From an uncultured Alphaproteobacteria bacterium (lineage in GTDB: Bacteria > Pseudomonadota > Alphaproteobacteria > Rs-D84): a DNA stretch of 64,000 nucleotides. The stretch covers positions 487 through 64,486 of the forward strand of contig CALXML010000001.1 in assembly GCA_944389465.1 (NCBI GenBank), written 5' to 3'. The position numbers and the translations under genes were made by a program. Below the pieces are notes generated by a model. It was not told where the DNA came from. It searched no databases and was given only the letters and a program-made list of their open reading frames with translations. Numbering within the stretch: position 1 is the first letter of the stretch; every line of letters starts with the position of its first letter. This document shows positions 6,794 through 61,433 of this stretch, piece by piece.

Positions 6794-6888
6794 AAACCAC
6801 CGTTTTATTTCGGCAAAAATGGGGGATAAAAAATGCAGATTTCTGGAATTTTTTCTAAAATAAAAACCACGATCGTAATCGGTGGTTT
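6794..6888. promoter_or_regulatory. invertible DNA switch A: 12-bp inverted repeats flanking a 77-bp segment that carries the RBS, ATG and first codons
   Basis: AAACCACCGTTT (6794-6805) and AATCGGTGGTTT (6877-6888) match in inverted orientation at 11/12 positions. The segment holds GGGGG at 6821-6825 and ATG at 6833. In-silico inversion yields an in-frame MQISGIFSKIKTTIVIGGLIICATLSSAANA signal peptide. Confidence 0.7.
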
Positions 6889-17641: not shown

Positions 17642-18064
17642 TTAATCGGACAGATTGCTGAACAACGCGGACCGGAAAGACGCATTGAACTGAGCGATGC
17701 TCGCACAGTTGTACGCGCAAAGGTCCGCGCAACGACCGCCCGACGAGTTCGCGCTGTAGAAAACCCAGCGCGACACCGCAGGTGATACCATTTTACACCA
17801 GCAATATTTGTTATCATTACTGGTTGAACTGGTCGTAACGGCGTCGGTGGTTGCACCAGCTGAACCGCCGTTTTGCGAACCGCAAAATGCAACACCCTGT
17901 ATTGATATGCCACCGCATGTTGCGGACCAATTTGATTGACCTGTTGCGCCCGAATAATCGGGACACGTTGTTGATGATGACAGTTTTACGCATTTGGTCA
18001 CGGCCATGGCCGGTGGAATTGTGGCCACACAAATCAGGCCGGCAATTAATAAATGTTTTTTCAT
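17642..18064 (-). CDS. Cys/Ser/Thr-rich secreted protein (140 aa), cassette II
   Basis: AAGGAGG RBS and ATG 18064. The N- and C-termini are nearly identical to 14246-14677, while the middle section has diverged. Confidence 0.75.
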   Translation of the reverse strand: MKKHLLIAGLICVATIPPAMAVTKCVKLSSSTTCPDYSGATGQSNWSATCGGISIQGVAFCGSQNGGSAGATTDAVTTSSTSNDNKYCWCKMVSPAVSRWVFYSANSSGGRCADLCAYNCASIAQFNASFRSALFSNLSD

Positions 18065-18252
18065 TCTAAACCTCCTTGTTTTCATTGCGAATGAAAAAAC
18101 CACCGAAATGAAGGTGGTTGGAGGTTCGAAACTATTAAAGGTAATAGTGCTGTTTATTCAATATATTCACAAGCCCTCCAACCGTGGTTGGAGATATTTT
18201 TAAATTTTCCTTTAAGAGGTTTCGACACCCCGTTAATGGAACGCCCATTAAC
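18065..18252 (-). ncRNA. structured leader RNA, copy 3 (5' UTR of cassette II)
   Basis: P0 GTTAATGG/CCATTAAC, GGGGTGT, P1 TCGAAAC/GTTTCGA, P2 CTCCAAC/GTTGGAG, P3 ACTATT/AATAGT, CCTCCAACC, terminator ACCACC...GGTGGT+TTTTTT. Confidence 0.6.
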
Positions 18253-31322: not shown

Positions 31323-32228
31323 ATGAATGATATTATTATGCACGATGTTTTAATTCTGGGGTCGGGGCCGGCCGGATTAACGGCGGCACTGTATTGCGCA
31401 CGTGCAGGTAAAAAGACTTTGGTTCTGGGGGGCGACACATTGGGTGGCCAGACTGCTGGCATCGCCGTATTGGAAAATTACCCCGGATGGCGCGGCAGTG
31501 GTTTGGAACTGTCACAATTTATGAAAACACAGGCCGAAAGTTTTGGCGCGGAAATAAAATTTGTTTCTGCTAAAAGTATTGATGGTGATGCCGAAAGTGG
31601 CTTTAACATATTATGTGATGATGGTAATCGTTATGTTGGTAAAACTGTTATAATCGCAACTGGTGCGTCCCCACGTAAACTGGAAATAGAGGGTGCACGT
31701 GAACTGTTCGGCAAGGGGGTTTCTTACTGTGCCACATGTGATGGATTTTTCTATTCTGAAAAAGAAGTCATCGTTATGGGGGGCGGTAATTCCGCATTGA
31801 ATGATGCACTGTATTTGGCTGATATTGCAAAAAATGTAAAAATAGTTTATCGCAAGGGCGCATTTACCCGTGCCGAGGCCATTCTGCGCAACCGTGTGGC
31901 TGAACGTGAAAATATTGAATGTTTGTTTAATACTGATTTGAAAAAAATTGCAAAAACGGACGATGACCGATTGGTTGTAACCACCACCGATGACGCAGAA
32001 ATCATTTGTGATGGTTTATTTGTCGCCATCGGGCACGAGGCCAACACCGACTATTTAACCGAAGATATTAAACGCGATAATATGGGCCGTTTATCCCCAA
32101 TTGAATTACCACGCGGTATGTTTGTCGCCGGCGACGTTGAATCAGAAATAAAAATGCAGATTGCAACGGCGGTCGGAACAGGATGTACTGCTGCCATGGA
32201 CGCCATTGCATACCTAAATCAATTATAA
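31323..32228 (+). CDS. trxB: thioredoxin-disulfide reductase
   Basis: ILGSGPAGLTAALYCARAG, redox-active CATCDG, and GGGNSA. Confidence 0.9.
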   Translation: MNDIIMHDVLILGSGPAGLTAALYCARAGKKTLVLGGDTLGGQTAGIAVLENYPGWRGSGLELSQFMKTQAESFGAEIKFVSAKSIDGDAESGFNILCDDGNRYVGKTVIIATGASPRKLEIEGARELFGKGVSYCATCDGFFYSEKEVIVMGGGNSALNDALYLADIAKNVKIVYRKGAFTRAEAILRNRVAERENIECLFNTDLKKIAKTDDDRLVVTTTDDAEIICDGLFVAIGHEANTDYLTEDIKRDNMGRLSPIELPRGMFVAGDVESEIKMQIATAVGTGCTAAMDAIAYLNQL

Positions 32229-32445
32229 TTGCACATCTGCTTGTGGTTGGCGTTGGTCACGTAACTCCCTGTACGTTCCCGTTGCCAACCACATGCGCAT
32301 CTGCACAATTCTAATTGATTTATGATTCGGATGTTGAAAACAGTGTTCGTGTAACTGTTTGTACACCCCCTGCGTTTTCCCGCACATATCTGGCCGGCTC
32401 TAATTGATTTGTTTTTTGTATTGGCGCATCTGCTTGTGGTTGTAT
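32228..32445. repeat. degenerate tandem ~88-bp repeats (about 2.3 units) with internal hairpins
   Basis: GC(A/G)CATCTGC occurs three times (32231, 32295, 32424), with the CTTGTGGTTG extension at 32231 and 32424 only. CTAATTGATTT occurs twice (32311, 32399). GTAACT..TGTAC occurs twice. There is a 10-bp stem TGTGGTTGGC/GCCAACCACA. Confidence 0.5.
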
Positions 32446-32456
32446 AATAAAAAAAT

Positions 32457-32485
32457 AACACGGATTTATCCCGTGTTGTTTTTTA
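32457..32485 (+). terminator. intrinsic terminator
   Basis: AACACGG-ATTTATC-CCGTGTT followed by GTTTTTT. Confidence 0.7.
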
Positions 32486-32503
32486 TAAAACTCATATTAT
32501 TAC

Positions 32504-32628
32504 TGGAAATAAACGGTGGTTTATTTTCGGCATAAGTTTTTATATCTTATAATATAATTTTGTCATATTTTCTGGGTAATTGTCAATTCTTGATTTTGCA
32601 TATTTTTAACCACCGTTTAGATTCGGCA
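32504..32628. promoter_or_regulatory. switch B: the same inverted-repeat core pair flanking a 90-bp AT-rich upstream segment (candidate invertible promoter/UTR segment)
   Basis: AAACGGTGGTTT (32511-32522) and TAACCACCGTTT (32607-32618) match in inverted orientation at 11/12. The left site has palindromic arms GGAAATAAA-CGGTGG-TTTATTTTCGGCAT. The right site is followed by the conserved TTTAGATTCGGCA...GGGGG...ATGCAA leader. Confidence 0.5.
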
Positions 32629-32648
32629 AGCAATTTGGGGGATGTATC

Positions 32649-33527
32649 ATGCAAAAATCAAGAAATTTTTTAAAAGTAATGTTGGATATTGTGTGTATGT
32701 TGTGTGTATCAAACGCATTCGCAATTACCCATGTGACAGAAGGGCAATATTATAATGATTGGTATAAAAGTGATTTTGTTAGCAGGTCTGGTTTTTCGGG
32801 CTTGGATTGTGTTGAAGAGGGCTCTGTAAATAATTTAAACCAAAATTACCGTGATGATGCGTGTAAGTTTTTCTTGGTAAATACGAATTATATTTGTGGT
32901 AATGCAGGAACAGGAATGAGTTATGATACACATGGTTTTGATGGTTTGCCTGATTGTGGGACTGTGTCATCTGCGTGTCAGGGGTATGATGTTATGATAT
33001 GGGATAACGTCGTGCCCGAACCAACGCCAATTGGATGTGCAAACCAATGCGACAATTTGTGTCGTGCTGATAATGGTTGGGAAGAATTGGATGAGTTTGA
33101 ATGTGCAATAAAGCAGTATTGGCGAAATAATACAAATTGTGTTTGTGATAAAGTTGGAACGCCAGAAATATATTATGAAGATTGTCAATGTCGTTATGAG
33201 TATTATTGTAACAGTAATTGTGACGCATCAGGAAACGGTGATGATATGCCAGAATGTTTGCCGTGTCCCCCAAATGCGACTTGTAATGGTGGAAACGAAT
33301 TAAGAAATTTTATTTGCAGCAGTGGTTATACAGTTGCATATGCATTAAATTCAATACGAACCCCCACTGGATGTTGCCCTGTGTTATTAGATAAAACTGG
33401 TTTGGGCCGATATTTGGTAGATGCCGAAAATGATTATAAATGTTATGCAAATGGTGGCAGCTCCACGTTTTCATTTACTGATTCAATTGGAACATTCTAT
33501 TTTACAGAAGACTGTGAATATAAATGA
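32649..33527 (+). CDS. Cys-rich secreted protein, family member B (intact start, ON configuration)
   Basis: Signal peptide MQKSRNFLKVMLDIVCMLCVSNAFA, about 34 Cys, CLPCPPNATCNGG motif, and C-terminal TDSIGTFYFTEDCEYK. Confidence 0.8.
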   Translation: MQKSRNFLKVMLDIVCMLCVSNAFAITHVTEGQYYNDWYKSDFVSRSGFSGLDCVEEGSVNNLNQNYRDDACKFFLVNTNYICGNAGTGMSYDTHGFDGLPDCGTVSSACQGYDVMIWDNVVPEPTPIGCANQCDNLCRADNGWEELDEFECAIKQYWRNNTNCVCDKVGTPEIYYEDCQCRYEYYCNSNCDASGNGDDMPECLPCPPNATCNGGNELRNFICSSGYTVAYALNSIRTPTGCCPVLLDKTGLGRYLVDAENDYKCYANGGSSTFSFTDSIGTFYFTEDCEYK

Positions 33528-33541
33528 TTAATTATTAATAA

Positions 33542-34051
33542 TCATTTTTTTCCAAAGTGTTTTTTTAGTGTATTATATGCGTCGGTGATTTTTGTAAATT
33601 GTTTTGCGGCCACGTCTTTGTCACCGGTTGCAGTGTCGGGGTGGTGGCGTTTTGCCAATGCACGATATTTGGCCGATATTTCACGCCATGATGCGGTAAT
33701 TGGTAAATCAAATGTTGCAAATGCAGATGTTATGCGACCAGACAGGTTTGTGCGACGGGGTGGGGCTTTATCAAATGTTGCACGACCTGTGATAAAATCG
33801 TTTAGAAATTTTATATAATCTGCATTGTCGGCGTCGGCCTGTTTTTTATCTTTTAATGGTGCGCCAAATGTTTGGCGTTCCCAATCTTCTTCTATTTCGT
33901 CGGGGGTCATACCGGCATAATAATTCCAATTTTTATTATATTCAGCCGCGTGTTCACGGCAAAACCACCAATAATCTGTTAAATCGCGGTTTTTGGGTGC
34001 ACGACAAGTACCGGCCTTGGTGCAACCAGCATGGTCACATTTTTTTATCAT
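33542..34051 (-). CDS. J-domain (DnaJ-like) protein with a Cys-rich N-terminus
   Basis: C-terminal J domain (ISAKYRALAKRHHPDTATGDKDVAAKQFTKITDAYNTLKK) and N-terminal CDHAGCTKAGTC..FCREH. Confidence 0.8.
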   Translation of the reverse strand: MIKKCDHAGCTKAGTCRAPKNRDLTDYWWFCREHAAEYNKNWNYYAGMTPDEIEEDWERQTFGAPLKDKKQADADNADYIKFLNDFITGRATFDKAPPRRTNLSGRITSAFATFDLPITASWREISAKYRALAKRHHPDTATGDKDVAAKQFTKITDAYNTLKKHFGKK

Positions 34052-34914
34052 TTTTCAAAATCCTTGTTGGTTGCCAGTGGGTGATGTAATTGAACTGTTT
34101 CTTTTAACTTTTCTGGCAAAACGTGTGTATAAATTTGTGTTGTGGATATATCTTCGTGTCCCAGCATTGTTTGTATCGCGCGCAGATTTGCGCCACCCGC
34201 CAACAGGTGTGATGCAAATGAATGGCGCAGTACGTGCGGACTGACCCGATTGGGGTCAATGCCGGCCAATACCGCACATTTTTTCAGTATTTTAAAAAAT
34301 CCATCACGCGTGATATGGCCGCTTTTTCCAGTTGATGGGAAAACATATTTTGATTTGTCGTTACCACGAATTTCCAGCCATTTATGTAATGCAGCGCGGG
34401 CACGTTCATGCATGGGAACAATGCGTTCCTTGGCTCCCTTGCCATGGATTAATAATTTATCGCCCAAATTTGCAGTCATTGGTAATTCGCATAATTCTGA
34501 TACGCGCAGACCAGATGCATATACCAATTCCAGCATTGCGCGCAGTCTGGTTGCATTACGTACATCGCCCGCCGATGAAATTAATAATTCTATTTCATCA
34601 ACTGATAAAAATTTTGGTAATGTGCGTGTGCGTTTGGGTAATTCCAAGTTTGCTGCCGGATTTTCAGAAATAATTTTTTCCAGCATTAAAAATTTGTAAA
34701 AACCGCGCAGGGCACTGGCCTTGCGTGCAATGGAAGAGGGCCGTTCCTGCAGATGTGATAAATAATTTTGCACATCATTTGCTGTTGCGTTCATCAGACC
34801 GCCAGAAATATTTTCATCTGCCTGATGTAAATCACTGGCATAACTGGCCAATGTTTTTGTACTGCGACCACGTTCAGCAGACAGGGCTTCTAAAAAAACA
34901 TCTATGTAATTCAT
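34048..34914 (-). CDS. xerD: site-specific tyrosine recombinase XerD-like
   Basis: ASGLRVSELCEL, HGKGAKERIVP, HVLRHSFASHLLAGGANLRAIQTMLGHEDISTTQIYTHV (R-K-H-R-H-Y signature). Confidence 0.85.
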   Translation of the reverse strand: MNYIDVFLEALSAERGRSTKTLASYASDLHQADENISGGLMNATANDVQNYLSHLQERPSSIARKASALRGFYKFLMLEKIISENPAANLELPKRTRTLPKFLSVDEIELLISSAGDVRNATRLRAMLELVYASGLRVSELCELPMTANLGDKLLIHGKGAKERIVPMHERARAALHKWLEIRGNDKSKYVFPSTGKSGHITRDGFFKILKKCAVLAGIDPNRVSPHVLRHSFASHLLAGGANLRAIQTMLGHEDISTTQIYTHVLPEKLKETVQLHHPLATNKDFEK

Positions 34915-41369: not shown

Positions 41370-42875
41370 ATGAGAATAAAAAAATTCTTTATATTTGCGA
41401 TTTTGGCTTTGGTTGCGATGCCTTGTTTTGCGGACAGTTTGTTTTTTGAAGATGAGCCCGTACAGGATGGGTTAAATGTTTTTGATGTGTCTGCAACTTT
41501 TGCTGATATTTATGAAAAATTAGACGGCGTTAAATGGGCCGGTAAAAATATAAACGTTGCAATTGAAAGTTTGGAAAATTTAAATACGCATGCGCATATT
41601 GCTGCAACTGATGAACGGGTTGTGTTGGTGTGGGATGATGCAATTATTGCAAATTATCCACGCCCCGCACCAAATGATTGGAACGGATTTGGTGAAATAA
41701 CAACGGCGTTGGTATTAAAACTGCGCGCAAATGATTCGGTGTTGCATAATGCATCAACCAGCCAAATGTATCAAATGGTTGTGGACAGTTTAATGCGTGG
41801 TATTGATGAAAATGGACGCTATATTTATTCACGTGCCGCAGAGATTGCCGAAGACGGACGGATTTTAACCAGTGTTGGTTTGGAAGGGGCGCGTGACACG
41901 CGTGGTAATTGGCGCGTTACCGGAATATTCAAGGATTCACCCGCCGATACCGCCGGAATAAAAGAGGGCGATTTAATCGTTTCTGTAAATGGGGTAAATG
42001 TTGCGGATATGTCTGATGCTGATTTGTCGGGGGCAATGTCCGGATTTAATTCAGGGACGTCTAAATTAAAGGTTTTATCACCAAATGGTGCAAAAGATGT
42101 TGTTTTACGTCGTGCAACTGTGATTTTGGCGGATGCTGATGTTGTTCATCGCAGTGATGCTGAAACTGGGGGAATATTGGAAATTGTTGTTCACAAGGTT
42201 TCTGATAATACTGCATCCATTGTGAACGAGGCTTTGGCAAAATATCCCGATATTTCTGGAATTATTTTAGATATGCGGGCCGCAACTGGTGATGATGAAA
42301 GGGCGGCGGCAAAATTGGCGGGTTTATTTATCGGGCAACAGCCTGTGATGCGGATTGTTGAAACGGCCAAGGATGAAGTAGAGGTTATCCCCGGTGGGGC
42401 GGCGGTTACAGATGTGCCGGTGGTTGTTTTAATGTCTAATATGACGCGTGGCACAGCCGAGGCCATAGTCGCAGCATTTTATGAAAATGGGCGTGGTGTT
42501 TTGGTTGGAACGCCAACTGCCGGTAATGCACGAATTGCAACACGGATAAATTTGAATAATGGCGGGGCGTTGGAACTGTTAAACAAATCCATTAAAACAG
42601 GCAAGGGGCGCGTAATAGATGGACGCGGAATTTTCCCAATTGTTTGTTTGTCTAATATTCGTTCTGTGAATCAGCAAGATGCATTTTTCTTGAACGTGAT
42701 AAACAATGATTTTAATTCACAGGATTTTAATGATAAGCCCGATGTTAATGCAGAAGATATTCGGCGTGGATGTCCGGTGATTACCAGTGGTGCGGATGAA
42801 GATGCGCTGGCGTCGGCCGTATCTGCAAAAATATTGACGGATTCCAAGGTTTATAATAAACTGATAGCAGAATAA
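41370..42875 (+). CDS. S41 (C-terminal processing peptidase) family protein with a PDZ domain; catalytic residues possibly substituted
   Basis: Signal peptide, PDZ domain (GIFKDSPADTAGIKEGDLIVSVNG) and an S41 core (ILDMRAATG..., VLVGTPTAG). Confidence 0.7.
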   Translation: MRIKKFFIFAILALVAMPCFADSLFFEDEPVQDGLNVFDVSATFADIYEKLDGVKWAGKNINVAIESLENLNTHAHIAATDERVVLVWDDAIIANYPRPAPNDWNGFGEITTALVLKLRANDSVLHNASTSQMYQMVVDSLMRGIDENGRYIYSRAAEIAEDGRILTSVGLEGARDTRGNWRVTGIFKDSPADTAGIKEGDLIVSVNGVNVADMSDADLSGAMSGFNSGTSKLKVLSPNGAKDVVLRRATVILADADVVHRSDAETGGILEIVVHKVSDNTASIVNEALAKYPDISGIILDMRAATGDDERAAAKLAGLFIGQQPVMRIVETAKDEVEVIPGGAAVTDVPVVVLMSNMTRGTAEAIVAAFYENGRGVLVGTPTAGNARIATRINLNNGGALELLNKSIKTGKGRVIDGRGIFPIVCLSNIRSVNQQDAFFLNVINNDFNSQDFNDKPDVNAEDIRRGCPVITSGADEDALASAVSAKILTDSKVYNKLIAE

Positions 42876-61336: not shown

Positions 61337-61433
61337 AAACCACCGATTAATATCGGTGTTTTTATTTTTTTGAAAATACCGAAAAACTGCATTTTTTATT
61401 CCTTTCTGTTGTACCGAAATAAAACGGTGGGTT
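61337..61433. promoter_or_regulatory. invertible DNA switch C: inverted repeats flanking a 79-bp segment carrying the RBS, ATG and first codons (currently flipped, OFF)
   Basis: AAACCACCGATT (61337-61348) and AAACGGTGGGTT (61422-61433) match in inverted orientation at 10/12 with an identical 6-bp core. ATG lies on the minus strand at 61392-61390. In-silico inversion gives an in-frame MQFFGIFKKIKTPILIGGFIMLIGFSTGASA. Confidence 0.7.

Follow-up and report, generated by a model that had tools for sequence, protein, structure and literature searches.

Locus B, the element analysed here, consists of a gene for a secreted cysteine-rich protein (gene B) and of a short DNA segment in front of its leader, which is enclosed by two inverted copies of one recombination site. 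It lies in a 64,000-nucleotide stretch of contig CALXML010000001.1 (hereafter the window, C1:487-64486) that belongs to a 954-kb, 99% complete genome (G000) from the order Rs-D84. Enterousia, of the same order, are described in the literature as gut bacteria with reduced genomes; nothing on DNA inversion is found in the literature describing Enterousia, and a system of the locus B type is undescribed in the literature that we searched on Enterousia and on invertons in Alphaproteobacteria or reduced genomes.

Anatomy of the locus

The segment is framed by a perfect inverted repeat, TAAACGGTGGTT at 32510-32521 and AACCACCGTTTA at 32608-32619 (12/12 matches, 86 nt between the copies), and thus has the flanking 12-nt repeats expected of an inverton; inside the repeats the core hexamers CGGTGG (32514-32519) and CCACCG (32610-32615) stand 90 nt apart (Table 1). 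An earlier note on this DNA, made without database searches, had named as inverted repeats AAACGGTGGTTT (32511-32522) and TAACCACCGTTT (32607-32618), which are present and become a perfect 12/12 pair when shifted by one base. The conserved arm that it had placed in inverted orientation at 32520-32533 is also there, as ATGCCGAAAATAAA on the minus strand with 0 mismatches. The site has a dyad, GCCGAAAATAAAC-GGTG-GTTTATTTTCGGC. Core and arms of the S1/S2 type occur at at least 25 sites in this genome, and the 9-mer AAACGGTGG is found in 5 copies in the window against 0.81 expected, a number which none of the shuffles reached (0/100). At the left site a 12-bp hairpin, with a T run behind it on the plus strand, may obstruct read-through from trxB.

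Protein B belongs to a 90% cluster of 17 near-identical members; no Pfam domain was found in it, and no homolog at E<=1e-5 among 60 relatives. Its beginning is related to start-codon cassettes dispersed over the genome. A genome-wide search gave 12 loci where CCACCG and CGGTGG, separated by 77-79 nt, enclose ATGCAG together with a ribosome-binding site and ~16 codons; with respect to the promoter side, all 12 cassettes lie inverted in this assembly, which is the OFF orientation. When 11 start cassettes of the genome are put into their ON form in silico, the leader of gene B, its ribosome-binding site and its first ~30 coding bases can be aligned with them; the note had likened the leader of B to the inverted form of two family members, A and C, and its first ~31 nt of coding sequence to the A exon. 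At the place of the downstream CGGTGG gene B reads GTAAT-GTTGGA (32676-32686, with GTTGGA at 32681-32686), and no CGGTGG occurs in the 5' part of the gene; this third site, S3, is decayed, which fixes the start cassette in its readable direction, as the note had also proposed.

Among 8 natural haplotypes of gene B the ratio of non-synonymous to synonymous polymorphism (pN/pS) ranges from 0.35 to ~1, and the single-nucleotide polymorphisms (SNPs) are mostly amino-acid-changing, as are 9/13 of the differences between two common haplotypes. This pattern indicates diversifying or relaxed selection. A scan of Joint Genome Institute (JGI) metagenomes with the fixed leader of B gave 0 matches.

Table 1. 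Features of locus B and its surroundings, in window coordinates
Feature	Position	Strand	Basis
Left recombination site S1, CTGGAAATAAA-CGGTGG-TTTATTTTCGGCAT	32503..32533	.	core 32514-32519, repeat arm 32510-32521
Invertible segment, 90 nt between core hexamers	32520..32609	.	inverted in L093 and L097, unflipped in 12 assemblies
Promoter-side arm ATGCCGAAAATAAA, 0 mismatches	32520..32533	-	adjoins CCACCG in canonical loci
Putative promoter: -35 TTGACA 32586-32581, 18-nt spacer ending TGA, TG 32565-32564, -10 CAAAAT 32562-32557	32557..32586	-	scan, homology
Right recombination site S2, GCATATTTTTAA-CCACCG-TTTAGATTCGGCA	32598..32628	.	core 32610-32615, repeat arm 32608-32619
Fixed leader of gene B, arm TTTAGATTCGGCA, ribosome-binding site GGGGGA 32637-32642	32616..32648	+	alignment with ON forms of 11 cassettes
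Gene B, for a secreted cysteine-rich protein of 292 aa with signal peptide MQKSRNFLKVMLDIVCMLCVSNAFA	32649..33527	+	open reading frame list; cluster of near-identical proteins
Relic of third site S3, GTAAT-GTTGGA-TAT against NTAAT-CGGTGG-TTT of the cassettes	32676..32689	+	cassette alignment
Bidirectional terminator hairpin, between trxB and the switch	32450..32484	.	inverted-repeat search, terminator scan, fold z = -3.8
XerD-like tyrosine recombinase gene	34048..34914	-	NCBIfam match, kept synteny

Natural orientations of the segment

Same-species assemblies were gathered through the 90% cluster of protein B, which gave 14 loci from different samples; the evidence on orientation is at the assembly level. 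In these 14 other assemblies, all with a near-identical gene B, the segment has the orientation of the window in 12 and the flipped one in 2, namely in L093 (European Nucleotide Archive, ENA, ERZ16268078, a 102-kb scaffold) and in L097 (Logan SRR26717818). Both of the latter read ...GGAAATAAA-CGGTGG-TTAAAAATATGCAAAATCAAGAATTGACAATTACCCAGAAAATATGACAAAATTATATTATAAAATATAAAAACTTATGCCGAAAATAAA-CCACCG-TTTAGATTCGGCAAGC..., that is, between unchanged flanks the 90 nt enclosed by the core hexamers stand exactly as their reverse complement, and after in-silico flipping of 32520-32609 in the window the sole difference from the switch region of L093 is a known C/T SNP. The flip turns the right site into a near-palindrome, GCCGAAAATAAA-CCACCG-TTTAGATTCGGC. 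The earlier note had predicted that a second inverted-repeat pair makes a segment of ~90 bp invertible and that the flip would recreate ...AACTTATGCCGAAAATAAA-CCACCG-TTTAGATTCGGCA...; exactly this sequence exists in L093 and L097, precisely flipped against the unflipped window and its 12 companions, and natural populations thus hold the two orientations that distinguish an inverton.

In the gene B tree 19 SNPs separate the two flipped haplotypes, each of which clusters with unflipped haplotypes; as the two are not sisters, the segment has been inverted at least twice. Both sites, S1 as well as S2, and both promoter hexamers are invariant across the 8 haplotypes.

Flipping on such sites is seen also at a sister switch on contig C6, where the gene of an Mpi-family invertase (C6:18001-18597) is followed by S1 CGGTGG, a 77-nt segment, S2 CCACCG, a 19-nt spacer, S3 CCACCG and an RgpF-like gene. 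Ten assemblies with an identical invertase comprise 7 with the reference arrangement, 1 with the segment flipped, 1 with the 19-mer relocated and reversed and 1 with both changes, a full set of the four isomers that S1xS2 and S1xS3 inversions should produce; it follows that the recombinase acts on these sites, with loops of 77 and 102 nt. The C6-type segment is also inverted between species (G036 versus G008 and G000). The invertase gene and the three-site mini-shufflon directly after it lie at G000:C6:18001-18790, outside the window, and the RgpF-like gene that comes next codes for a glycosyltransferase (loci L082-L091).

Promoter and expression states

The putative promoter on the minus strand of the segment, which scores 10/12 with a TG extension in the promoter scan, points away from gene B in the window orientation. 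It aligns with the promoters of 12 sister loci: the promoter side of the canonical loci reads TTGACG-N17-TAAAAT-N12-ATGCCGAAAATAAA-CCACCG, and the B segment, where CAAAAT is followed after 23 nt by ATGCCGAAAATAAA, is its homolog. The elements AATTGACA, AAAATATG(A/C)AAAA and the arm are invariant in the four loci compared, which come from three species (B, the B-like segments of G063:C5 and G235:C4, and G063:C1), and in G063:C1 the promoter is non-invertible and drives a start cassette in the ON orientation. As far as sequence can tell, gene B has next to it a putative promoter with a 10/12 consensus match, conserved across loci and species, and this appears to be its only good promoter.

To the left, where it points in the window, the promoter meets just a 9-codon open reading frame (ORF) and the terminator 32450-32484, in which the terminator scan places a minus-strand terminator at 32477-32457, then a T run. 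The flipped layout has in succession promoter, arm, CCACCG, leader, ribosome-binding site and ATG. From the promoter homology with the 12 sister loci and the three other species we infer that the flipped form is ON and the window form OFF: the window state is read as OFF because the promoter points from gene B toward the terminator, and the flipped state as ON because its layout equals that of sister genes with start cassettes ON. Among functional switches, the LC promoter of Bacteroides fragilis is a precedent for one that all genome sequences show as OFF (PMC3090145), and promoter F of this species is OFF-biased (PMC10403206).

The earlier note had seen -10-like hexamers on both strands of the segment. 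TATAAT is indeed present at 32548-32553 on the plus strand, and TTGACA at 32581-32586 on the minus strand, but the plus-strand TATAAT has no usable -35 and is not conserved in the homologous segment of G063:C5.

Site families and related loci

The reverse layout, CGGTGG and CCACCG at a distance of 77-90 nt around a promoter-like segment, is found at 2 loci of the genome, B and C6:18611. Relatives carry a full three-site design, which is a site, a promoter segment, a site, a start cassette and a site. In G235:C4 the promoter faces the gene and the start cassette is reversed; G063:C5 matches the state of B, with the promoter pointing away, the cassette readable, the third site decayed to CGGATT and a 90-nt segment of 78% identity. 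From these comparisons B would be a two-layer switch reduced to its promoter layer. At L038 (G235:C4:~42440-42620) the third site is decayed to CGGTCA, and the gene is possibly locked in the off state. The segments fall into length classes of 77-80, 88-91 and 102 nt, and these steps suggest a helical-phase constraint.

Two of the 12 OFF cassettes lie in the window (6797-6885 and 61340-61430), the other ten elsewhere in G000. When the cassettes are flipped in silico, a hydrophobic continuation of the signal peptide results in only about half of the 12; the reading of the cassette C8:24654 meets two stop codons, and C3:24676 no longer has an ATG.

The sites of a second family, AAAACG-TC-CGTTTT, are perfectly palindromic about their central 2 bp. 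This family has the same ATGCCGAA(A)TAAA arms, the core ACGGACGT/ACGTCCGT and a GA/TC centre; two pairs lie outside the window (G000:C1:94754-94845 and C9:9097-9190), one around a promoter-like segment and the other around a start cassette, and single copies occur at C4:68909 and C5:23956. The differing central dinucleotide would stop the two families from recombining together. At another group of loci (L053 in G063:C5:700-1100, L030, L040 and L045 in G104, L031 in G133) the same type of promoter segment stands between two divergent genes of secreted proteins, where a single promoter would serve the two genes in turn instead of turning one gene ON and OFF.

Two other kinds of candidate were rejected. 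Five paralogous MKKHLLIAGLIC...TIPP genes (window 18011-18105 and, in G000, C3:101201, C6:4834, C6:64225 and C7:20924) have CGGTGG in an upstream terminator hairpin, AACCACC...GGTGGTT, and CCACCG as Ile-Pro-Pro codons, 81-89 nt apart; with one orientation in 5/5, and with the hairpin and the codons in these places, the pairs at the MKKHLLIAGLIC signal peptides are probably a coincidence with the recombination core. Ends of contigs near the sites were not accepted as proof of heterogeneity, as cassettes are multi-copy repeats. Five independent Logan contigs share an end point at window ~32413, 236 nt upstream of the ATG of gene B; after trxB the window has a region of degenerate 88-bp tandem repeats (32228-32445), and the recurrent end is a repeat-caused assembly breakpoint in them, not a mark of the switch.

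The candidate recombinase

The genome encodes a XerD-like and a XerC-like protein, a phage-type integrase and two Mpi-family serine invertases. The invertase at C3:83685-84317 scores 306.9 bits with the Mpi-family model NF009949 (cut-off 272), and the one at C6:18001 is just under the cut-off with 256.2 bits. An Mpi-family serine recombinase is accordingly present together with many dispersed regions that share one consensus repeat, at least 14 loci here and pairs in many members of the genus, as is typical for Mpi-type systems. Across 121 genomes of the genus, WAAACGGTGGTTW has at least 4 copies in 22, and every one of these is invertase-positive (22/22, with 93/121 positive in total), while none of the 28 invertase-negative genomes is rich in sites (0/28). 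An ortholog of C3:83685 with 75-92% identity exists in 12/12 site-rich genomes tested, 9 of which have no other invertase, and the 8 site-poor invertase-positive genomes tested are all without a C3-type match above 68%.

It is likely, from these distributions, that the enzyme acting on the B sites is an Mpi-family invertase or both of them. The C6 invertase, which lies beside a switch, was considered as the prime enzyme, and the genus-wide comparison moved the weight to the C3-type paralog. The dyad and the palindromic second family would fit a site that, like hix/gix, is bound by a serine-recombinase dimer and has a 2-bp crossover. Three HU/IHF-family genes are present, and their proteins could give the bending needed by such small loops.

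The same invertible promoter could also be flipped by Xer-type tyrosine recombinases, on a 13-6-13 site with CCACCG as the overlap region, which we regard as improbable. Taken as two 13-nt arms with an asymmetric core of 6 nt between them, the site may be likened to the 11-6-11 of dif. The XerD-like gene lies 0.5 kb downstream of gene B, in a dnaJ-xerD order that is retained in every assembly, a XerC-like gene lies 90 nt from the cassette C9:35545, and enzymes of the Xer type cause inversions in mycoplasmas (PMC3047005, PMC2268961). Nevertheless, XerC and XerD are here single-copy and of housekeeping type: the XerD-like protein reaches 308.6 bits with NF001399, a model of a tyrosine recombinase subfamily (cut-off 279), XerD is its best equivalog, and models of tyrosine invertases (FimB/E-type) give the three tyrosine recombinases of the genome 44-63 bits against cut-offs of 221-222. 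The XerC/XerD housekeeping pair is generally carried by bacteria, and if Xer genes are universal in the genus, they cannot explain the distribution of the sites, which are enriched only in genomes with a C3-type Mpi invertase. The true dyad GCCGAAAATAAAC-GGTG-GTTTATTTTCGGC and the palindromic 2-bp centre of the second family are also at odds with a Xer site, and such a layout with the core AAACN-NN-NGTTT resembles the hix/gix sites of serine invertases. The neighbouring XerD-like gene was thus set aside as the enzyme, and is probably a housekeeping gene outside the switch.

Interpretation and alternatives

We consider it probable that locus B is a phase-variable invertible promoter, flipped in trans by a site-specific recombinase. 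In the mechanism that we propose, S1 and S2, inverted and with A/T-rich arms around CGGTGG/CCACCG, flank the promoter segment 32520-32609, and the recombinase would exchange strands within the common 12 nt and turn the segment over. In the window orientation the promoter would fire leftward into the terminator ~100 nt away, with gene B OFF; in the flipped one the promoter and ATGCCGAAAATAAA would adjoin CCACCG, the fixed leader, the ribosome-binding site and the ATG, with gene B ON. The locus would derive from a three-site ancestor, with a promoter segment and a start-codon cassette, in which loss of the third site left the control to promoter inversion alone. The enzyme would most likely be the C3:83685-84317 invertase, possibly with the C6:18001-18597 paralog, in trans on at least 25 sites.

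Several points weigh against this interpretation. The flipped form is present in just 2/15 genomes, which may mean a low rate of inversion. Support in the tree is moderate (82-94), and what look like independent inversions could also arise by recombination between strains. Near-neutral evolution is seen in gene B, which has no homolog in the 60 relatives and may be under relaxed constraint. The co-occurrence of sites and invertase is a raw correlation across genomes in which kinship is ignored, and the segments of 77-102 nt are, to our knowledge, far below the lengths known for serine invertases.

Alternatively, the repeats would be a recombination scar, left by a few past inversions, with no switching now and with orientation as a fixed trait of a strain. 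One orientation prevails in 12/14 assemblies, and the flipped form is limited to two haplotypes, one of which is the most divergent. We find this explanation very unlikely, since the two flipped haplotypes are non-sister, both sites are perfect in 8/8 haplotypes while the adjoining third site has decayed, and the same design is kept in another species; moreover, strains that are nearly identical differ among four isomers at the sister switch, whose sites are the same, and this means that the species has an active enzyme.

An active switch could still work in the opposite sense, with the window orientation as the expressing one through the plus-strand TATAAT (32548-32558), and the flip would then turn B off or drive a leftward target. 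Two overlapping TATAAT hexamers do face gene B, and most assemblies share the window orientation. We give this polarity very little probability, as no -35 with above 2/6 matches stands at 16-18 nt, the promoter scan did not report the plus-strand TATAAT, and it is unconserved in G063:C5 where the minus-strand -35 and extended -10 are invariant; the flipped layout is that of every ON-state sister gene, and on the left side there are just a 9-codon ORF and a terminator. That the flipped contigs are assembly artefacts, as metagenome assemblers can misjoin at repeats, or result from general (RecA) recombination between the repeats, has a negligible chance, because a 12-nt repeat is shorter than assembly k-mers and an inverted contig needs reads spanning both new junctions, the product is identical from two different pipelines and samples, and 12 nt is below the length for efficient RecA recombination.

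Starting from the invertible promoter at locus B, we put forward a broader suggestion, which seems to us plausible but somewhat short of probable: one Mpi-family invertase in Candidatus Enterousia would flip dozens of segments of 77-102 nt, whose length steps of ~12 nt (78, 90, 102) suggest that for synapsis both sites must be in helical phase, on a tightly bent and enhancer-free loop, with a site that is interchangeable for promoter, cassette or both, and B would be a case of losing one layer.

Significance and comparison with known systems

Under the broader suggestion, serial gating by promoter and start cassette would constitute a two-layer (two-bit) control of a surface-protein gene. If our interpretation of locus B is true, a gut bacterium of <1 Mb, known from metagenomes only, would vary its secreted and surface proteins by programmed DNA inversion. 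The switches are far smaller than those of textbooks, and at locus B the flip is documented in nature at the locus itself. The same recombination site would be transferable from gating the start of translation to gating transcription, and invertible loops of 90 nt (and 77 nt) would present a testable challenge to the pictures of serine-invertase synapsis. Inverton finders tuned to longer segments, and consensus metagenome-assembled genomes, would under-report the expressed surface genes in these organisms.

The closest functional match is the Mpi (FinA) system of B. fragilis, which shares with ours the enzyme family, the dispersed promoter segments and one short consensus repeat (PMC4747536). 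Mpi acts in trans, on fin regions that precede capsular polysaccharide and other loci, its targets are surface or secreted, and some of its switches are strongly OFF-biased (PMC4747536, PMC10403206, PMC3090145). The host here is an alphaproteobacterium of <1 Mb instead of one of the Bacteroidales, its promoters resemble the sigma-70 type, the segments measure 77-102 nt, the same sites bracket also cassettes with ribosome-binding site, start codon and half of a signal peptide, and locus B joins promoter and start-cassette types of module at one place. The Mpi segments of B. fragilis are roughly 170-230 bp long.

Nearest in strategy are the mpl lipoprotein genes of Mycoplasma penetrans, which likewise belong to a small genome in which many surface-protein genes have their own invertible promoter with 12-bp repeats, according to the passage of PMC3047005 that cites Horino 2009. 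There, the enzyme is a tyrosine recombinase, MYPE2900, and the repeats vary by gene, whereas here we see one strict consensus and a serine-invertase candidate. The mpl segments have ~135 bp.

With Salmonella Hin/hix and with Gin, Cin and Pin our system would share a serine invertase and the decision by promoter orientation, and at C6 the invertase gene adjoins the promoter segment; hix/gix, AAACC-NN-GGTTT, resembles the site core AAACG-GT-GGTTT. The Hin segments, however, are of ~1 kb, hold the invertase gene and a Fis-bound enhancer, and form one switch per genome, in contrast to the many switches here with segments of <105 nt and no enhancer evident; 77-102 nt leave no room for an internal recombinational enhancer. 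Escherichia coli fimS (FimB/FimE) is also an ON/OFF promoter inversion, there for a surface structure, with short repeats and likely DNA-bending helpers, but it has 314 bp, 9-bp repeats and dedicated tyrosine recombinases. We know of no natural invertons that are shorter than these segments of 77-102 nt.

The M. pulmonis vsa and Ureaplasma mba-type, or 'partial intergenic', invertons come nearest to loci A and C, which likewise shift a piece with ribosome-binding site, start codon and 5' coding sequence, but no promoter, against the body of the gene (PMC3047005). Locus B would retain a fossil of that design, with a fixed 5' piece and the promoter as the sole moving part, and without many genes that compete for a single expression site. 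Compared with the systems of B. fragilis and M. penetrans, what differs here is the host lineage, the extreme shortness of the segments, the one strict site for promoter and start-codon modules, and the presence of both modules at one gene.

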